The translations under genes were made by a program, and so were the position numbers. Positions 45,421 through 59,280 of a stretch of 64,000 nucleotides of DNA are shown here, in pieces. Source of the DNA: Candidatus Staskawiczbacteria bacterium RIFCSPHIGHO2_01_FULL_39_25 (GTDB lineage: Bacteria; Patescibacteriota; Minisyncoccia; Minisyncoccales; Staskawiczbacteraceae); the NCBI GenBank assembly GCA_001820095.1, contig MHOO01000003.1, forward strand, positions 987 to 64,986, read 5' to 3'. Within the stretch, counting starts at the first letter, position 1. The number at the start of each line of letters is the position of its first letter. The notes under the pieces were generated by a model. That model was not told the DNA's origin, ran no database searches, and saw only the letters and a program-made list of their open reading frames with translations.

Positions 45421-45588
45421 GGAGTATATATACAACCACGCTAAAACCTATTTTGTGGAAAATTGACGAACGAACCGACGACGAACAAGACCGTATGCCC
45501 GCGGGCACACGGGGCGAAACAAACGACGAGCAAAAATTTTCTGGGCTGGGGGGAGAAAATTTTTGCCGTTAAGGCGAGTAAATTTTAA
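45421..45588. repeat. Left arm of a perfect 168-bp inverted repeat
   Basis: I reverse-complemented it by hand; it is identical at 168/168 positions to 47079-47246. Confidence 0.95.
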
Positions 45589-45633
45589 ATATTGAGAATT
45601 TAGATAAAAGATGATAATATATATGTAAATATT

Positions 45634-47078: not shown

Positions 47079-47246
47079 TTTAAAATTTACTCGCCTTAAC
47101 GGCAAAAATTTTCTCCCCCCAGCCCAGAAAATTTTTGCTCGTCGTTTGTTTCGCCCCGTGTGCCCGCGGGCATACGGTCTTGTTCGTCGTCGGTTCGTTC
47201 GTCAATTTTCCACAAAATAGGTTTTAGCGTGGTTGTATATATACTC
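47079..47246. repeat. Right arm of the perfect 168-bp inverted repeat
   Basis: See 45421-45588. It contains the internal palindrome tgcccgcgggca. Confidence 0.95.
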
Positions 47247-51942: not shown

Positions 51943-52014
51943 TTGCGGGATCGTCTAATGGTAGGACAACAGATTCTGGATCTGTTTATCTTGGTTCGAA
52001 TCCAAGTCCCGCAG
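51943..52014 (+). tRNA. tRNA-Gln (anticodon CTG)
   Basis: Acceptor TGCGGGA/TCCCGCA, anticodon arm ACAGA-TTCTGGA-TCTGT, T-arm CTTGG-TTCGAAT-CCAAG. Confidence 0.9.
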
Positions 52015-52066
52015 CACGCATGGGCTAAGTCGGGTGACCGAGTTGCATATGTAAATTTAAATAAAT

Positions 52067-52390
52067 ATGGGCGAAATTATTACTTACAAATCTAGTCCTA
52101 TCTCTAAGTACTGCCAAATGAAGTTTGGTGATGGAGATAGAATATTAATTTCTGTGGCGCGATCTGGGATTAAAATTGTTAAATTAAAATGGGCAGGTTT
52201 AGTTCCTTCAGAAACTATTTTTCAAATTTCAACAGCTGATCTCTTTTCCGATAATTACAAATTTGCACGAGGTCGACTTACAGAAAGATCGTTTGCGCTT
52301 GATATGTTGGATGTTTTTAAAGAAATATTTTTAAAACTGGATTCGCTTAATGAAGTTAAAGAGGAGCTAAATTTAATCTTCGTGAAATAA
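52067..52390 (+). CDS. Hypothetical protein
   Basis: 107-aa ORF; no recognisable motif. Confidence 0.45.
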   Translation: MGEIITYKSSPISKYCQMKFGDGDRILISVARSGIKIVKLKWAGLVPSETIFQISTADLFSDNYKFARGRLTERSFALDMLDVFKEIFLKLDSLNEVKEELNLIFVK

Positions 52391-52592
52391 AATTTAATCG
52401 TGTTTAAAAAATAATTAACTCAAGAGGAATTTGAATCAATAGCTCGTATAGGAATTTACCAAAAGATGGTTATATCATAAAATCCCTTTTAGGATTTAAG
52501 ACGGAGGGTGAAATAAAAGAAGAAACAAGAATAAATGGTTTTACTGCGAGTGAGGGTTATATTATTGAATCAAACTCATAAATAATAAAATT

Positions 52593-52850
52593 ATGATTCT
52601 TCATCAATGTCCAGAGTGCGATAAATCATTTAATAGTGGGTTAGACCTGTTTAACCACATAGAAAATTATCATCGCCAAATTGGAGCTATAACAAAAGAA
52701 AGCAAATGTCCTTACTGCAATAGTGAAAAAATTATGCCATTAGGCATAGAAAAGAATGGCGATGTTAATATTCAAACAGGGGGACTACAAGGAAAAGAAT
52801 ATCAAATTTATCGTTGCGAAAACTGCACACATCTTTGCAAGGGCAATTGA
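52593..52850 (+). CDS. Small zinc-finger protein (C2H2-type spacing plus a second Cys4 ribbon)
   Basis: CPEC-x12-H-x4-H (CPECDKSFNSGLDLFNHIENYH), then CPYC...CENC. Confidence 0.5.
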   Translation: MILHQCPECDKSFNSGLDLFNHIENYHRQIGAITKESKCPYCNSEKIMPLGIEKNGDVNIQTGGLQGKEYQIYRCENCTHLCKGN

Positions 52851-52879
52851 TTGTATATTTATGAGATTTATGCTATAAT
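52851..52879 (+). promoter_or_regulatory. Candidate promoter of the HD-hydrolase leader
   Basis: TTGTAT (52851-52856), 17-nt spacer ending TGc, TATAAT (52874-52879). Confidence 0.5.
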
Positions 52880-52885
52880 GAAAAT

Positions 52886-53051
52886 GTAGATGTAGATCGA
52901 AAAAAGAAAAACGCTTATTTTTCCCTTTTAGGGTAGGCAATCTGGGAAATCTGCGGAAAGCCAGATGAAATAAGCGACTAATCGTTCAAAGGCGGTTGGG
53001 AGATTTCATTCAGTGTAGTCAGCTGGATTAAATCTCTTAACCGCTTTTTTT
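52886..53051 (+). promoter_or_regulatory. Structured 5' leader (riboswitch- or attenuator-like, class unknown) with an intrinsic terminator
   Basis: Closing helix cgcttattt/aaataagcg (52912-20/52968-76) encloses ccc-tttta-ggg and atctgg-...-ccagat. Terminator gcggttgggag/ctcttaaccgc (52992-53044) plus T7. Confidence 0.4.
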
Positions 53052-53100
53052 GTTGGTCGGCTCAAAGTTAGTAGTTAGGAGTAAGTAAAAAGTAAAAATT

Positions 53101-53718
53101 ATGAATAATATAAATAACAATTTAGTAGAAAAAGCTCTTATTAAAGCTATTGAGCTTCATAAAGGTCAGGTAAGAAAGGGTGATGGTAAAATTCCTTATG
53201 TAGTCCATCCGATTGAAGTGGGCATTATAGTTGCCAGATACACAAACAACCCAGAACTTGTTGCTTCTGCTATTCTCCACGACACAGTAGAGGACTGCAA
53301 TTACTCATTAGAGAAAGTTGAAGAAGAATTTGGCGATGAGGTGAAAAACTTGGTTTCTGCTTTGACCGAAGACAAAACAATACCCGCTTGGATAGACAGA
53401 AAAGTAGAAAATTTACAGAGGTTAAAACTTAACCAAGACGCTTATTTCATTAAAACGGCTGATATTTTGGCAAATATGCGTTCACTGATTTCCGCACTCA
53501 AAGAAGAAGGAGATGTGGTATGGTCTCGGTTTAATACACATAAAGAGATGAAAATGGAATACTTTAAGGCGATTCTACAAGATACAGAAAACTTTCTGCC
53601 AGTGAAATTTCTTGAAGAATATGTTTCTGCTCTCAAAGACCTTGAATACTCTGAATTTTTAGAGAAAAAATCGGCACTCGGCTTTGTGGTTGAGAAATTA
53701 GGACTTGGTAAAAAATAA
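53101..53718 (+). CDS. HD-domain protein of the RelA/SpoT hydrolase type (small alarmone hydrolase-like)
   Basis: AIELHKGQVRKGDGKIPYVVHPIEV...AILHDTVEDC...FGDEVKNLVSALTE. Confidence 0.8.
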   Translation: MNNINNNLVEKALIKAIELHKGQVRKGDGKIPYVVHPIEVGIIVARYTNNPELVASAILHDTVEDCNYSLEKVEEEFGDEVKNLVSALTEDKTIPAWIDRKVENLQRLKLNQDAYFIKTADILANMRSLISALKEEGDVVWSRFNTHKEMKMEYFKAILQDTENFLPVKFLEEYVSALKDLEYSEFLEKKSALGFVVEKLGLGKK

Positions 53719-53920
53719 AAAACTTGAAATTCTTTTGCAGAAACTGCTATACTCTAATTGGAGTAGTGAGAGTTGATATTTTTCAGCATTTGGCTGGAAA
53801 CATTAATGTGTAATAAGTCCGTCATCTGCCTTTGTGCAGTGGATTTGCAAAGTTTGCAAAAGGTGCGGTTAAAAACAGTGGTGGCTTACGGGTCTATCAA
53901 GAGTGCTACTCCAATAAAAA

Positions 53921-53941
53921 ACTCCCAAAAGGAGATTTTTT
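53921..53941. terminator. Short bidirectional stem-loop; probable terminator of the minus-strand R-M operon
   Basis: ctcc-caaaa-ggag flanked by an A-run and a T-run. Confidence 0.45.
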
Positions 53942-53984
53942 ATTTGTAAAAACAAATTTTCTATTATACAGTTATGTTAAAGTT

Positions 53985-54212
53985 TTAAATGAGTGCGTCT
54001 AATTCTAAACGCATTGCTCTCCAATCAAAGGTTCGCAGTTCGTCCAAAAGGGGGAGATTAGAATCAGAACTGTTCAAAACTGGCGTAAAATCGCCAGTTT
54101 TGTTCGTAAAATCGGCTGTTTTGGTCGGTTCGAATTTTTTAAAATCAATAATATCAATGAGCCGCTGATATGGGCTCTCTGGAATATTCATTGTAATTTT
54201 AATAGCTAACAA
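53985..54212 (-). CDS. Small hypothetical ORF downstream of the endonuclease gene
   Basis: 75-aa ORF (possibly starting at the internal MNIPES); no motif. Confidence 0.3.
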   Translation of the reverse strand: MLAIKITMNIPESPYQRLIDIIDFKKFEPTKTADFTNKTGDFTPVLNSSDSNLPLLDELRTFDWRAMRLELDALI

Positions 54213-54225
54213 TTACCTTATCTAC

Positions 54226-55929
54226 CTAAGCCGGTGTCATAGAGAAAGCGGAGGTAATTTTACTAGAAATACCTTGATACCATTCAGCTTCATTGGAGGC
54301 TTTTAGTGCTAAGCTTGCCATTTCGCTCAGGAGTACTTTTATATCCTGAGAATTTGGTTTATTTTGAGCGTTTTTTGCATTTTCAAGCAATCTTCTAAAG
54401 TCATCCAGGGCTAATGGTATAATCGTTGAGCGACCACCGTAATATTGAACATCGGTACGCGAAAGGACAAAGTAATGGGCAAGAGTAGCAGGATTTATTT
54501 GTGGTGCTATAAAAATTGCAAAAACTGGCTTTGTAGTATTCTTCCGATGATTACCATAATGCCGCGATACCGGCTCTCCCTCCATTTCATATTGTCGTTG
54601 CCCTGATGACAAAGTTACCTCAACTATGGCTTCAAAATCAGCATATTTACATACAATATCTGGCGTATTACCTGGTGCTGCGTAAAGTGGCGCACCGTGA
54701 TTATCAACTCGAAAGTTTCCTTCTATTGTTCCGTCATCAAGCATTTCCATAGCTCTCCACGTATTCCATTCAAGAAATAGAGCAGGGTCAGCTATGTCAG
54801 AATTACGAATCCGGTCAAAAGTATCTTGGATATCACTGTATTCCTCATAAGTACGAAGCTTACTTCTTTCTTGGCCAAGTATACGTTCGAGGTTTTTACT
54901 TAGCAATGCAGAGAAAATATCTTTAAGCTCCTCAATCGTCTTTGTGTGTAATGTTTCAATCGGATATTCACTGCTTTGCAAGGCAATATTCTGTATTAAA
55001 CCATCCATATTATCTGTGAGAAGTATCGGAGTTGTTGCTGGAAATAAATAATTTACATATTCTTCTTTTGAATCAAAATCTTGTGATTTTCTTGAAACTG
55101 TCTCAAGGATATAGTCTACATCTTTAGCTCGCTCCGGCATAACAAAAACCCGTAATGATTTTGCATTAAAAGTAAAAAGGCCTGTTGCTCTTAGATATCT
55201 TATCGAAGCATCGGCATAATCAGTATGATTGCGTTGCTTGATTCTAATAAATGATTTTAGCGAAGAGTCGTCTGATTCCCTTGTTGAGATTTCACCGCTT
55301 CTTATTTCTTCTGCAAATAGCGAAGTGAGCTCCTGTTCAAAATATTGTGCAATAAATTCTCTATAATTCACTTGCCGTCGCTCTCTGTTTTTTCGAGCCG
55401 CTTTTCGAAAGTTCTCAATTTTACGCTGGATGGTTTTATAATTTTTATAATTCGTAAGCTTAATAACAAATAAAGCAATTTCCGTTTTACTAAGACCTTC
55501 AAGGTCGCGGACCAGCCGCATTAATTCGAGGTAAGGTTTAACTGCAAATTTTCTATTTTCATCGATATGGTAGGGTGATGGCAATTGAAATTTTAACATC
55601 TGTCTAAGCAGAGTTTCCTCCGGACGGTTACCGTAAATAAAACTATGACCAGCTGGTGTCAACGCTATGACTGGTTTAAGATCAACAAAGCCAAGTGATT
55701 TTGGTCCACGAGTTATGCGATCTCTGGCACTAAAAGCTGGATCAGAAGATTGACTGCCTTCAAAAAATGGCTGGTGTACCAATGCTTCATAATATTCGCG
55801 CTGCGTTTCTGCAGTCCATTTTTTACCTGAAAAGTTTTCGATGAGAAAACGTATCTCATCTTTCATTTTGAAAGGTGATCTTGGAGAAGTTACAAAGAAA
55901 ATAGTCTTTTTGCCTGTAATGATGGCCAT
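54226..55929 (-). CDS. AlwI/BstNBI-family type II (IIS or nicking-type) restriction endonuclease
   Basis: Blocks match my recollection of N.BstNBI/PleI/MlyI: SPRSP, AFSARDR, GLSKTEIALF, DYADASIRYLRATGLF, PGNTPDIVCKYADFEAIVEVTLSSGQRQYEMEGEPVSRHY, IFIAPQIN. Confidence 0.78.
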   Translation of the reverse strand: MAIITGKKTIFFVTSPRSPFKMKDEIRFLIENFSGKKWTAETQREYYEALVHQPFFEGSQSSDPAFSARDRITRGPKSLGFVDLKPVIALTPAGHSFIYGNRPEETLLRQMLKFQLPSPYHIDENRKFAVKPYLELMRLVRDLEGLSKTEIALFVIKLTNYKNYKTIQRKIENFRKAARKNRERRQVNYREFIAQYFEQELTSLFAEEIRSGEISTRESDDSSLKSFIRIKQRNHTDYADASIRYLRATGLFTFNAKSLRVFVMPERAKDVDYILETVSRKSQDFDSKEEYVNYLFPATTPILLTDNMDGLIQNIALQSSEYPIETLHTKTIEELKDIFSALLSKNLERILGQERSKLRTYEEYSDIQDTFDRIRNSDIADPALFLEWNTWRAMEMLDDGTIEGNFRVDNHGAPLYAAPGNTPDIVCKYADFEAIVEVTLSSGQRQYEMEGEPVSRHYGNHRKNTTKPVFAIFIAPQINPATLAHYFVLSRTDVQYYGGRSTIIPLALDDFRRLLENAKNAQNKPNSQDIKVLLSEMASLALKASNEAEWYQGISSKITSAFSMTPA

Positions 55930-57380
55930 GTTATTTCTTTTTTATTCACCGATTTACCATTTGCCTGAAGCGGGTCATTGCCGATAGATAAAAATGTCTT
56001 AATACGATTTTCTGAAACATCAAATGCTTTATTAGATATATCGCAGCCGATGAAATTACATTTTGCTTTAATAGCCGCTATTGCTGAAGAACCACTGCCG
56101 AGAAAAGGGTCGCAAATAGTGTAATTATCACCAGCACTTGCCTTAATCATCATATCAAATACTTCTACTGGTTTCTGGGTTGGATATTGAGCATTGTGTA
56201 TTCTCTTTATTTTCCAAACGTCAGGTATTGATTTACTGCTTAATTTTCTCTTATTACTATTTGTAGCAAACATAATAAATTCGTGCTGTCTCCTAAAGTA
56301 GTGTCCCATGCCTACATTTACTTTATCCCACACAATTACATTTTTAACATCAAAATATTTACGCATTAAAGGCGCTAGCGAAAGTAGGGAAAATGAATCA
56401 AACATGATGTACAAATGTCCGGTATCTTTTTTAAGAACTCTTTTACATTCAGCTAGAAATTCTTTGTAATTTTCTTCAGTATCCTGAAATTCAGCAAACC
56501 ATCGACCATTCTCTTTTCCCTTATCGGCATATTTACCAACTATTCTTCCGCTATGTAGCATCAAATGATTATTCATGCCAGAGTATGCCGGATCAGTGGT
56601 TATCAAATCTATACTGTGATCATCTAACTTTTTAAGGAATCTAATACAGTCGTCTTGAACAATTCTGACGGTTTTGCCTGATGTATAATCTTGTTCATAT
56701 TTCCTGATCGGCGCATCAGATTTCAATGTTTCTGAATTTTGTTTTTTCTCGGTAATGATTTCCGGAATATCTACCCCAGTTTCTTGGATTACATCAATCA
56801 CTATTCCTTGTATTGCAACGTCGCGGCCACTTCTAAAAATCAGAGGTTCCATGCTTTTATTTGCTGGCTGTAAACGTATTTGTCCTTTTTCTTTATAAAA
56901 TTTCTTAAGTGTTGCTTCGTGGTTGTCGATTAGTGCTACCACTTTTTGTCCATTGTTGGCGGTCGTCTGCTGCCGAACCAAAACAATGTCTCCGTTATTA
57001 ATATTTTCATCAATCATACTATCACCAACAACGCGAAGCGCATAGACCTCTGATGAAGCTGGAATTTTACTTTTTGGTACTGCAATTATCTCCTTATTTT
57101 CAATCGCTTCTATGGGTTGGCCGGCAGCAATAGTTCCCAGTAAGGGAACCTTAATCATCGGCTCAGATTCATAGATATCAATCGCGCGAGCATTATTACC
57201 AGCCTTTTTCAAGTATCCCTTTTTAGCAAGAGTTTTTATGTGTTGATGAACAGTAGAAACGGCGGAAAGTTTGAGTCCAGCACAAATTTCCTCAAGTGTG
57301 GGGGGATATTTTTTCTTGCTGATAAACTTCTTAATGAAGTCCAATACCTCTTTTTGTCTTTTCGTAATTGGTAATGGCAT
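55890..57380 (-). CDS. Fusion protein: full-length LexA (wHTH plus S24 autopeptidase) joined to a beta-class N6A/N4C DNA methyltransferase
   Basis: aa 1-200 are LexA-like: TKRQKEVLDFI, cleavage site IAAG (A86-G87), GDSM (S121), TLKKF (K159). aa ~235-496 are the MTase: TDPAY (263-266), YPTQKP, DPFLGSGSS. The 3' end overlaps the endonuclease start by 40 nt. Confidence 0.85.
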   Translation of the reverse strand: MPLPITKRQKEVLDFIKKFISKKKYPPTLEEICAGLKLSAVSTVHQHIKTLAKKGYLKKAGNNARAIDIYESEPMIKVPLLGTIAAGQPIEAIENKEIIAVPKSKIPASSEVYALRVVGDSMIDENINNGDIVLVRQQTTANNGQKVVALIDNHEATLKKFYKEKGQIRLQPANKSMEPLIFRSGRDVAIQGIVIDVIQETGVDIPEIITEKKQNSETLKSDAPIRKYEQDYTSGKTVRIVQDDCIRFLKKLDDHSIDLITTDPAYSGMNNHLMLHSGRIVGKYADKGKENGRWFAEFQDTEENYKEFLAECKRVLKKDTGHLYIMFDSFSLLSLAPLMRKYFDVKNVIVWDKVNVGMGHYFRRQHEFIMFATNSNKRKLSSKSIPDVWKIKRIHNAQYPTQKPVEVFDMMIKASAGDNYTICDPFLGSGSSAIAAIKAKCNFIGCDISNKAFDVSENRIKTFLSIGNDPLQANGKSVNKKEITWPSLQAKRLFSL

Positions 57381-57498
57381 AAAGTTTATTGATGAGGTTA
57401 AATTTAAGTGCTATATTATCATTGTACCGAAAATTTTACGAAAATAGGATAGGGCAGTTTATCCACATATTGTTTACTTTTTTATAGCAACGTTAGTA

Positions 57499-57527
57499 TT
57501 GACATATAAATATCTATAAACTAAAAT
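57499..57527 (+). promoter_or_regulatory. Candidate promoter of the XRE/ImmA operon, with an 8-bp palindrome at the predicted start site
   Basis: TTGACA (57499-57504), 17-nt spacer, TAAAAT (57522-57527); TACATGTA at 57529-57536. Confidence 0.55.
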
Positions 57528-57555
57528 ATACATGTACTAATTAAAATTCAAAATC

Positions 57556-57903
57556 ATGAACAATGAATTTGGCGTAAAACTTAAAAATTTGAGGGAGAAA
57601 CATTTCCCGGGCCATAGTATGCGCAAGGTTGCCGATCTTGTAGCGCCCCAGATTCAGTCCGGTGATTATTTTTTTACCCAGCTAAACAAAATGGAATCTG
57701 GTGTCTTGATCCCCTCCGCAAATTTACTACTAAAAATATTGGATGCCTATAGTGCTGACGCAGAAGAAAGAAAAGAAGTGCTTATCGCATATGCCACCGC
57801 GGCAGCTTTGAAAAAGGTTGATGAAGTGGGACAGGCCTCAAAGCAAAATATCCATCGCGAGGTAGTTGAGAGTTTGCACAGGAAACTTAAAAAGAAAAAT
57901 TAA
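57556..57903 (+). CDS. XRE-family helix-turn-helix regulator (ImmR-like)
   Basis: FGVKLKNLREKHFPGHSMRKVADLV...LNKMESGVLIPSANLLLKILDAY. Confidence 0.8.
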   Translation: MNNEFGVKLKNLREKHFPGHSMRKVADLVAPQIQSGDYFFTQLNKMESGVLIPSANLLLKILDAYSADAEERKEVLIAYATAAALKKVDEVGQASKQNIHREVVESLHRKLKKKN

Positions 57904-58547
57904 TGGGACTAAAAATTACAAAAAAGGGTATTCCTATAGCCAAGCTTTATATTTCCGATGAAGACATTGAGTGGCAGGCCATGGCTGATTTGATTACCTA
58001 CCGAAAAAAGTGGCTTGCTGCTTATGGCAAACCACTAACTGGGCCTCTCGATGTAGATAATTTTATAAAAGAACTTTGGGGTATGGAAGTTACATATGAA
58101 GAATTGCCGCAATCTGCAGACGAGGAATCACTGGGCGTCTTTAAACCGGAAACCCAGGAAGTAATCATTGATCCGGTAGCCTGTAATCACCCTAAAAGAA
58201 TTTCGTTCACTGTCGCCCATGAAGCTGGCCATTTATCACTACACGTATTTCTTTTCGTGGTTAAAGAAGGAAAGTTTGTTGGTTGGAAAAAAGACCACGC
58301 TTCTTGTGACAAAAACTTGGAATATCAAGCAAACCTATATGCTGGCTCGTTATTGGCTCCTGAGCAAGAGATCTGCGGCCTGTTAAAGGAAAAAGGGTTG
58401 TCTATAAATAATTTGATAGCTAATCCAATTGACCTGTCCGCACATCTTGCGTCCTTCCAGGAAAAATTTGGGCTATCTAGGCACGCTTTAGAAATTAGAC
58501 TTAACCGGCTCGGAGTTCCTATGGCAGATGCAAAATATTTGAATTGA
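57903..58547 (+). CDS. ImmA/IrrE-family (COG2856) zinc metallopeptidase
   Basis: HEAGHLSLH (HExxH) motif; TAATG overlap with the XRE gene. Confidence 0.85.
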   Translation: MGLKITKKGIPIAKLYISDEDIEWQAMADLITYRKKWLAAYGKPLTGPLDVDNFIKELWGMEVTYEELPQSADEESLGVFKPETQEVIIDPVACNHPKRISFTVAHEAGHLSLHVFLFVVKEGKFVGWKKDHASCDKNLEYQANLYAGSLLAPEQEICGLLKEKGLSINNLIANPIDLSAHLASFQEKFGLSRHALEIRLNRLGVPMADAKYLN

Positions 58548-58554
58548 GTTATCT

Positions 58555-58584
58555 AAAAAACCGCTTTTTTGAGCGGTTCTTTAG
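58555..58584 (+). terminator. Possible terminator after the ImmA-like gene
   Basis: aaccgc-ttttttga-gcggtt followed by cttt. Confidence 0.45.
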
Positions 58585-58738
58585 GGCACTGAATTTGTCC
58601 TGACAGGATCATCAATGGATTATATGAGTCATAGTTTGATGGCTTAACTCATAAATCCGGTCGACTGATTTTTCTTGTTCTGTATCCATCATAACAGGTT
58701 CGGTGCCCGATAGCAAACCTAACGAAGTTCTTACTAAA

Positions 58739-59020
58739 ATGAGTATATCAGACCAATTGGTAAGGCTAGTCTGGACAAAGGCTATTATTGTTCCCGGGCG
58801 CGACTCAAGCAAAATGCGTAAAGATGCTTGTGGTGCATGGATTCATTGGGAGCAATACGGAAACCGAAACAGTCAATTTGGTTGGGAAGTTGATCACATC
58901 ATCGCTACTACAAGAGGTGGAAGTGATTTAATTTTCAATCTCCGCCCACTACACTGGCAAAACAATGCCAGAAAGTCAGATGGAAGAAGTCTCGTTTGTC
59001 CAGTTACGGCCTCAGCCTAA
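58739..59020 (+). CDS. Small HNH endonuclease (ATG 58739 preferred over GTG 58703)
   Basis: GWEVDHIIATTRGGSDLIFNLRPLHWQNNARKSD. Confidence 0.8.
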   Translation: MSISDQLVRLVWTKAIIVPGRDSSKMRKDACGAWIHWEQYGNRNSQFGWEVDHIIATTRGGSDLIFNLRPLHWQNNARKSDGRSLVCPVTASA

Positions 59021-59059
59021 CCGAAAGCGTTGAAATTCGCTCCGGCCGGAGCATTGTGC

Positions 59060-59092
59060 GTCGCCTTGTTGCAACAGGGCGACTTTTATTTT
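59060..59092 (+). terminator. Rho-independent terminator closing the island
   Basis: gtcgccttg-ttgcaa-cagggcgac followed by ttttatttt. Confidence 0.7.
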
Positions 59093-59280
59093 ATCTTATT
59101 CTTCTCCGGCCAGAAGCTTCTCCATTTGCATAATATCGGCATCCGGGAAGCGCAGCAGTTCTTCCCATTTGGTGTTTATGAACTCGTTCCACTTGGGGAG
59201 CTTTGAAGGGAAGTATCGAGTGACCAGAGAGGGTCGCAAAAAATCGCCAAAGGGGCGATTTTTTGTTACTATAAACGAAT

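Follow-up and report, generated by a model that had tools for sequence, protein, structure and literature searches.

Methylases of the M.SsoII, M.EcoRII and M.ScrFI type carry an N-terminal helix-turn-helix (HTH) domain that binds their own promoter and sets the levels of both methylase and nuclease. Auto-regulation of restriction-modification by methylases with such an N-terminal HTH (PMC3874152) is one of the closest described precedents for the locus analyzed here, and another is the CapH/CapP pair, which is reported always to lie upstream of the immune operon that it regulates, on the other strand, and to accompany many different systems (Lau et al. 2022). The locus lies in a 64,000-nucleotide stretch of the Candidatus Staskawiczbacteria contig MHOO01000003.1 (hereafter the window), in which a restriction-modification operon on the minus strand, with its start codon at 57380, and an XRE-type repressor/M78 metallopeptidase pair on the plus strand diverge from a 175-bp spacer of 23% GC (57381–57555). 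A first-pass annotation, made from the sequence alone, had described two protease-controlled repressor modules placed back to back. Re-reading the sequence confirmed the positions of its open reading frames (ORFs), the spacer length, the TAATG in which the XRE stop and the M78 start overlap by one base, and every motif that it quoted. Both modules exist, and both look proteolytically competent from their conserved residues, namely the cleavage site and catalytic dyad of LexA and the HEAGH motif and E140 of the M78 protein.

On the minus strand, a close comparison is the SOS repressor LexA, as known from E. coli and from the direct-repeat binders of Alphaproteobacteria, Acidobacteria and Patescibacteria. 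The window protein shares with it the winged HTH and S24 domains, the Ala-Gly cleavage site, the Ser/Lys dyad and a predicted operator in its own promoter with the layout of an 11-bp direct repeat, but it is covalently joined to a DNA methylase and encoded by the first gene of a restriction-modification operon, and its S24 domain would stay on the methylase after cleavage. As in the M.SsoII type, a DNA-binding domain is located at the N-terminus of the methylase and is predicted to bind the methylase's own promoter. Unlike in that type, however, the regulatory part is a complete, cleavable LexA, from which it follows that RecA and DNA damage should lift the repression by the fusion.

The plus-strand pair resembles CapH/CapP (Lau et al. 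2022; Calloji et al. 2026) in that a translationally coupled XRE and M78 pair stands upstream of and opposite a defence operon, and CapP is the best sequence and fold match of the window M78 protein. The latter is nevertheless shorter (214 amino acids (aa), compared with 288 in E. coli CapP and 291 in the solved Thauera chain), has neither a GAF domain nor the conserved cysteine after HEXXH, and belongs to an XRE/M78 family that is mostly not opposite an operon; the cysteine switch is itself not present in all CapP homologues, according to the same literature. ImmR/ImmA of ICEBs1 and phage-type XRE/COG2856 pairs likewise combine an XRE repressor with a neighbouring short peptidase that has no GAF domain. 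The size of the M78 protein is nearer to that of ImmA, and homologues of the window pair, too, occur at the ends of integrated elements near recombinases and tRNA genes, whereas the window has no integrase or element genes nearby and places XRE and then peptidase on one strand with the restriction operon opposite. In Deinococcus, the ddrO and irrE genes are not known to be adjacent. The window pair shares with DdrO/IrrE (PprI) the predicted peptidase fold (PDB 3dte, 8sln) and, by analogy, the logic of repressor cleavage, but IrrE has HTH and GAF domains and binds single-stranded DNA (ssDNA) between the peptidase domain and the GAF domain. The plus-strand module is probably an ImmR/ImmA- or CapH/CapP-type cassette with a near-consensus promoter.

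Results

The methylase of the restriction operon carries a complete LexA

In the first-pass annotation, LexA was a free repressor that shares an operon with a methylase. This proved to be wrong, as LexA forms the N-terminus of a single methylase fusion of 496 aa (Table 1), and all three domains fall inside one uninterrupted ORF, not two genes; a stand-alone two-domain LexA would comprise ~200 aa and end before the C-terminal methylase. LexA chains in the PDB align to residues 4–199 of the fusion (3k2z, 3.6e-36) and methylase chains match its C-terminal half, and the translation contains the methylase motifs DPAY and FLGSGS (catalytic/S-adenosylmethionine-binding motifs). The protein is 100% identical to a Candidatus Staskawiczbacteria record named 'repressor LexA'. 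The AlwI-type gene is second in the operon and overlaps the methylase gene by 40 bp, and PADLOC matches the operon to its MTase_II (1.6e-115) and REase_II models (4e-56; a Type II nicking endonuclease model). The supposed LexA-methylase operon thus comprises one fused ORF plus the AlwI-type gene and encodes a Type II restriction-modification system, the methylase of which carries a complete LexA. With an intact Ala-Gly site (A86-G87) and Ser/Lys dyad (Ser121 and Lys159), the fusion looks competent for cleavage.

Table 1. Positions of the genes, domains and predicted control elements in the window.
Feature	Position	Strand	Evidence
LexA-methyltransferase fusion, 496 aa	55890..57380	-	Pfam, PDB matches
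LexA winged HTH (LexA_DNA_bind, PF01726)	aa 4-66, about 57183-57371	-	3.2e-18
S24 autoprotease/dimerisation domain (Peptidase_S24, PF00717)	aa 79-195, about 56796-57146	-	1.9e-31
N6/N4 DNA methylase (N6_N4_Mtase, PF01555)	aa 257-457, about 56010-56612	-	8.6e-28
AlwI-family Type II restriction (or nicking) endonuclease, 567 aa	54226..55929	-	RE_AlwI PF09491, 1.2e-54
Predicted -10 TACAAT of the restriction-operon promoter	57421..57426	-	Read from sequence; inferred
Candidate LexA box, direct repeat ATTTTCG-TAAA-ATTTTCG, 11-bp period, contains CGAAAATTTTACG	57428..57445	-	Homologous loci
Perfect DnaA-box consensus TTATCCACA, includes TATCC arm	57459..57467	+	Enrichment upstream of fusion genes
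XRE/M78 operon promoter TTGACA-17-TAAAAT	57499..57527	+	11/12 match
TATCTATA, candidate XRE operator between -35 and -10	57511..57518	+	Four sequences; missed by first-pass annotation
TACATGTA, candidate XRE operator at predicted start site	57529..57536	+	Related elements at homologous promoters
XRE-type HTH repressor, 115 aa	57556..57903	+	HTH_31 6e-5, below gathering score
ImmA/IrrE/CapP-type M78 metallopeptidase, 214 aa, peptidase and helical C-terminal domain	57903..58547	+	PF06114 1.6e-6
Small HNH nuclease ORF, module membership uncertain	58703..59020	+	PF01844 1.6e-4

The fusion recurs with unrelated methylases

A LexA-domain alignment, used to scan a genome collection, yielded the 80 best LexA loci (L017–L096 in our numbering), in which complete LexA ORFs of at least 400 aa were counted. 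In 53 of these 80 loci, a complete LexA ORF is fused to a DNA methylase (460–627 aa); the sources are mainly metagenome-assembled genomes of Patescibacteria, with a few carrying other labels. Including the window protein, both LexA domains are present in 54/54 fusions, and A86-G87, S121 and K159 are invariant throughout the alignment of all 54. The most frequent added domains, with overlapping counts, are methylases of the N6_N4 (40), C5 (10), D12 (8) and N6_Mtase/Eco57I (1) families. The neighbours, often convergent, are usually restriction enzymes; they match the MvaI/BcnI, TaqI, Bsp6I, AlwI, BsaWI, MamI, NgoFVII and HNH/EndoVII families or are a second methylase. The nearest relatives (L001–L006; 64% identity) keep the LexA-methylase-AlwI operon, with AlwI orthologues 53–55% identical downstream, next to unrelated upstream neighbours and without XRE/M78, and in a group at 44% identity the fusion is accompanied by a second methylase. 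Together, these comparisons indicate that the LexA-methylase fusion is recurrent, not a one-off, and involves unrelated methylase families and many restriction-enzyme families.

The LexA part of the window protein is 65–77% identical to LexA-only proteins of ~200–240 aa, several of which are annotated as Patescibacteria LexA. Unfused LexA proteins of the candidate phyla radiation were found with DpnI, an NmeDI-type nuclease, a convergent Mrr or a separate methylase directly downstream (L011 3001–4412, L014 3001–4384, L043 4001–5521, L071 3998–6194). All four of these loci have the same LexA box upstream, and L011, L014 and L071 have a perfect DnaA box as well. The Acidobacteriota-type LexAs that we checked have ordinary neighbours, e.g. 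DinB and TonB.

Candidate control elements of the restriction operon

Three sequence motifs of the spacer had been put forward as palindromic operators. We compared the spacer with 2000 dinucleotide shuffles of itself and found three 8-bp palindromes where 2.0 are expected, and one inverted repeat with 5-bp arms where 5.3 are expected. Because they do not exceed the shuffled expectation, the palindromes carry no weight by themselves, and as operator evidence they were ruled out in this AT-rich spacer; TACATGTA and the TATCTA element resemble sites in XRE-family promoters.

The near-palindrome CGAAAATTTTACG (57428–57440) is really the centre of a direct repeat with an 11-bp period. The comparison with orthologous loci, which had been proposed as a search for conserved palindromes, instead showed that homologous loci keep the direct repeat and not the palindrome, and CGAAAATTTTACG was rejected as a near-palindromic operator. 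The repeat abuts the predicted TACAAT -10, just as it abuts a TATAAT-like hexamer in most homologous loci, and the upstream regions of the window, L001, L003 and L007 share (A/C)TTTCG-N4/5-ATTTTCGG(G)TA followed by a -10-like hexamer. The spacer holds the window's single instance of TTTCG-N6-TTTCGG, and each of 10 homologous loci, whose flanks are unrelated, has one copy in the corresponding position. Most of 86 loci scanned have, flanked by a TTGAC-like -35 and the -10, a 7-mer direct repeat of 11-bp period whose two copies co-vary (TTTTCG/TTTTCG, TTTTCT/TTTTCT, GTTCGG/GTTCGG, and TTCGCC/TTCGCC in Acidobacteria). On this comparative evidence, we assign the promoter-embedded repeat to the GTTC-N7-GTTC type of LexA box and regard it as a candidate operator. 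Direct-repeat LexA motifs are attributed to Patescibacteria in an Erill-group paper that cites the Patescibacteria study (PMC7739468). No consistent extra LexA boxes were found before convergent restriction genes. In L029, L039, L051 and L055 the box is reversed and located downstream of the -10, before the LexA start codon (e.g. AATCGAAAATAAATAGAAAGTCAA), and L051 has LexA boxes in both positions.

The inverted repeat GGATA-N8-TATCC (57447–57464) was also rejected as an operator, since only its TATCC side is conserved, as part of the DnaA-box sequence TTATCCACA, and not the inverted repeat. A perfect DnaA box is present no more than 150 bp upstream of 31/57 LexA-methylase genes, as opposed to 6/2384 background windows (0.25%), an enrichment whose nominal P value overstates independence because the loci are phylogenetically related. 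The orientation and distance of TTATCCACA vary among loci, and it is usually present as a single copy; the whole window contains only 2 perfect DnaA boxes. A perfect DnaA box is also found upstream of the XRE promoters in L101, L113 and L177. From these data, we infer that DnaA may bind at TTATCCACA.

The XRE/M78 pair and its promoter

The PF06114 score of the M78 protein is above the Pfam cut-off, and in the family of about 50 homologues H106, E107 and H110 of the HEAGH motif are invariant and E140 is nearly so. PADLOC matches the protein to capP at 5e-14, and the family profile matches CapP (7t5t) at 5.7e-6. The AlphaFold model (pLDDT 88) is matched by Foldseek to CapP, PprI and IrrE at probability 1.0 and covers part of targets of 240–278 residues (TMt 0.42–0.47). 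After residue 137 the model is essentially all-helical, with only isolated, single-residue strand marks; accordingly, the protein lacks a C-terminal GAF domain, which in IrrE and CapP makes up half of the groove for ssDNA. For want of this domain, damage sensing by the XRE/M78 pair is only an analogy. The family alignment has no conserved cysteine between H110 and E140, where CapP-type enzymes carry their post-HEXXH cysteine, and the sole invariant cysteine, C94, precedes HEXXH. An XRE homologue (33–46% identity) is located directly upstream of M78 in 14 metagenomic loci.

COG2856-Xre pairs have been predicted to be toxin-antitoxin-like or three-component systems (Makarova et al. 2009; PMC2701414), and the window pair could in principle be of this class, with no role in induction. 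We consider this highly improbable, as the characterized ImmA/ImmR, IrrE/DdrO and CapP/CapH pairs are all protease-repressor switches and a domain search detected no RelE- or PIN-type third gene here. Downstream of M78, a weak terminator-like hairpin was read by eye at ~58558–58580; the computed scan did not report it. The HNH ORF that follows is not supported as a conserved third gene of the cassette: no HNH homologue was found next to other XRE/M78 pairs, which have an unrelated 116-aa or 94-aa ORF at this place.

The near-consensus promoter of the first-pass annotation is borne out. TTGACA-17-TAAAAT is the best match in 54–59.4 kb and is above chance, with 0.02 such matches expected per shuffled spacer; there are 5 matches of 11/12 in the 64 kb. 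A TTGACA -35 is found at the equivalent place in L109, L111, L112, L177 and L178, and the distance from the -35 to a following TATCT(A/C) is 6 nt in the window, L177 and L178; in L109 it is 4 nt. CTACATATG or CTACATGA, both related to TACATGTA, stand in or next to the -10 of the XRE promoters in L099–L108, L113 and L178. XRE/M78 promoters thus combine a TTGACA or TTGCAT -35 with one or both of two elements, TATCT(A/C) a few bases downstream of it and CTACAT(A)TG in the vicinity of the -10, and TATCTATA and TACATGTA are, from this handful of sequences, reasonable candidates for XRE operators. In many of the loci L099–L108 and L113, the XRE start codon lies 6–9 nt past a TACAAT or TACACT -10, implying leaderless mRNAs.

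Genomic contexts of XRE/M78 homologues

M78 homologue loci were obtained from metagenomes with an alignment query, after a scan with the single protein gave none. In L098, L100 and L103, the 3' end of a tRNA gene is followed by the XRE/M78 pair, a 116-aa ORF and a serine recombinase. The pair is accompanied by a recombinase and a ComM-like Mg-chelatase fragment in L178, by RusA and a phage-like peptidase in L105, and by a convergent ATPase and C5 methylase in L177. In L108 (1125–8429), it is located between a divergent Fic and AEP-TOTE helicase pair and a co-directional HNH-SAVED and SMODS (CBASS-like) operon. By their gene content, these contexts appear to be mobile or defence elements. Placement of the pair after a tRNA 3' end, with a serine recombinase ~1 kb downstream, was also observed in many of the loci L099–L108 and L113.

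These contexts bear on the possibility that the window pair is a leftover immunity module of a mobile element or defence island, which regulates only itself or nothing, and perhaps the HNH gene, and came to lie beside the restriction operon through the assembly of an island next to tRNA-Gln. Its homologues at element ends (tRNA 3' end and serine recombinase in L098, L100 and L103; recombinase in L178) would fit such an origin, as would the segment of 52.0–59.1 kb, which begins at tRNA-Gln (51944–52015) and holds a miscellany of HD, zinc-finger, restriction-modification and HNH genes. However, the ORF list and a domain search revealed no integrase, recombinase or other mobile-element gene in 52–59 kb, the GC content of the segment is not distinct from its surroundings, and neither ORF of the pair is disrupted: the catalytic residues are conserved, the two genes are translationally coupled and their promoter is near-consensus. 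We therefore regard a leftover module as improbable.

Relationship between the two modules

We favor, with confidence only slightly better than even, the reading that two autonomous, self-regulating proteolytic switches merely abut in the spacer. No M78 or XRE relative was detected by tblastn, family hidden Markov model or motif scan within about 4 kb of 96 LexA loci; tblastn found none of LexA-methylase, AlwI, HNH and HD in 17 M78 loci, and neither LexA nor AlwI was found in about 20 XRE/M78 loci, including L177–L179. A conserved linkage of the restriction operon with XRE/M78 was thus sought and found absent in the 96 LexA loci and the 17 M78 loci, and the juxtaposition appears from these searches to be a feature of a single lineage, seen only here. 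In the spacer, the control blocks at 57421–57445 and 57499–57536 are 54 bp apart. The absence of conserved linkage, this distance and the fact that each block has its own family's layout all speak for autonomy; with the LexA box and its -10 more than 50 bp from the XRE promoter, each arranged as in its own family, the "one control region" of the first-pass annotation is doubtful.

Several observations weigh against autonomy. Standing upstream of a defence operon and on the other strand, the XRE/M78 pair occupies precisely the place that CapH/CapP regulators have relative to their targets, and as modular regulators of this type serve many systems, their linkage to any one of them would not be expected to be conserved. 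The restriction-operon promoter has a poor -35, and TTATCCACAT (57459–57468), between the two promoters, resembles the XRE-promoter element TATCTACAT and could be a second XRE site. Moreover, 20/20 contigs with the identical fusion keep the arrangement, and no strain variant without XRE/M78 was found among them, yet they represent one population and add no information because all share one context.

The first alternative is an integrated dual control, which we rate as possible but doubtful. Here, XRE/M78 would act as a CapH/CapP-like regulator and XRE would repress the promoter of the LexA-methylase gene as well as its own, so that full induction would require LexA to cleave itself and M78 to cleave XRE, or one of these events would be enough. 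The geometry identical to CapH/CapP, the best matches of M78 to CapP, the L108 pair between a TOTE-type gene pair and a CBASS-like operon, and the location of the TATCTACAT-like TTATCCACAT upstream of the restriction-operon promoter all argue for it. They are to be set against about 60 independent LexA-methylase systems without such a partner and against the contexts of most XRE/M78 homologues, which have no divergent operon and are preceded by a tRNA gene or a same-strand gene. Furthermore, about 100 bp separate the restriction-operon -10 from the conserved XRE-type elements, which sit at the XRE promoter, and TTATCCACA is equally conserved in LexA-methylase loci without XRE.

If the two switches are instead autonomous, the fusion would dimerize via its S24 domain and bind the direct-repeat LexA box abutting its own -10, thereby co-repressing the methylase and the AlwI-type nuclease. 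In response to RecA filaments, the fusion would cleave itself at A86-G87, which would free the DNA-binding domain, leave the S24-methylase body intact and lift the repression. The operon would then behave as an SOS-inducible restriction system, with more methylase and nuclease following DNA damage or ssDNA brought about by phage. On the other side of the spacer, XRE probably auto-represses via the TATCTA and TACATG sites around its own -10, and the M78 peptidase would cleave XRE on some signal.

Surrounding segment and side observations

From tRNA-Gln to a P-type ATPase gene (51944–59100), the segment contains a 107-aa ORF, a C2H2 zinc-finger ORF, an HD_4 protein, the restriction operon, XRE/M78 and the small HNH ORF, and it may be a variable or defence island. 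Elsewhere in the window, a 1.49-kb segment coding for a Trypsin_2-domain protein and a 168-aa ORF is bounded by a perfect 168-nt inverted repeat (45422–45589 and 47079–47246); it could be an invertible segment or an assembly artefact. Each 168-nt arm holds a LexA-box-like TGTTCGT-N4-GGTTCGT.

Discussion

XRE/M78 switches and auto-regulation by HTH-bearing methylases are already known. For LexA-methylase fusions, we found no description in the literature, with an earlier mention in the study of the Patescibacteria SOS response (Sanchez-Osuna et al. 2017, Environ Microbiol 19:3465) being possible. The fusion is the more general and more interesting result than the juxtaposition. Control of restriction-modification is known mainly for C-proteins and for methylases with a simple HTH, and a methylase with an intact, cleavable LexA would tie restriction directly to RecA/SOS signalling. 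The fusion predicts damage- or infection-inducible restriction, and it predicts that, in organisms with very small genomes, LexA and with it the SOS regulon are tied to the possession of a restriction-modification system.

The locus also yields concrete candidate operators (the LexA box, the conserved DnaA-box sequence and the XRE sites), and the adjacent XRE/M78 pair is a natural test case for whether CapH/CapP-type switches control restriction systems as well. In the broadest reading, which we consider rather unlikely as a whole, the SOS repressor of Patescibacteria and their neighbours would have become part of restriction-modification, with LexA fused to whichever methylase is present, and a CapH/CapP-like switch would here be wired into the same promoter region, so that two independent signals of DNA damage or infection would induce the restriction system. 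If this is true, restriction, methylation and the SOS regulon would share one cleavable protein.

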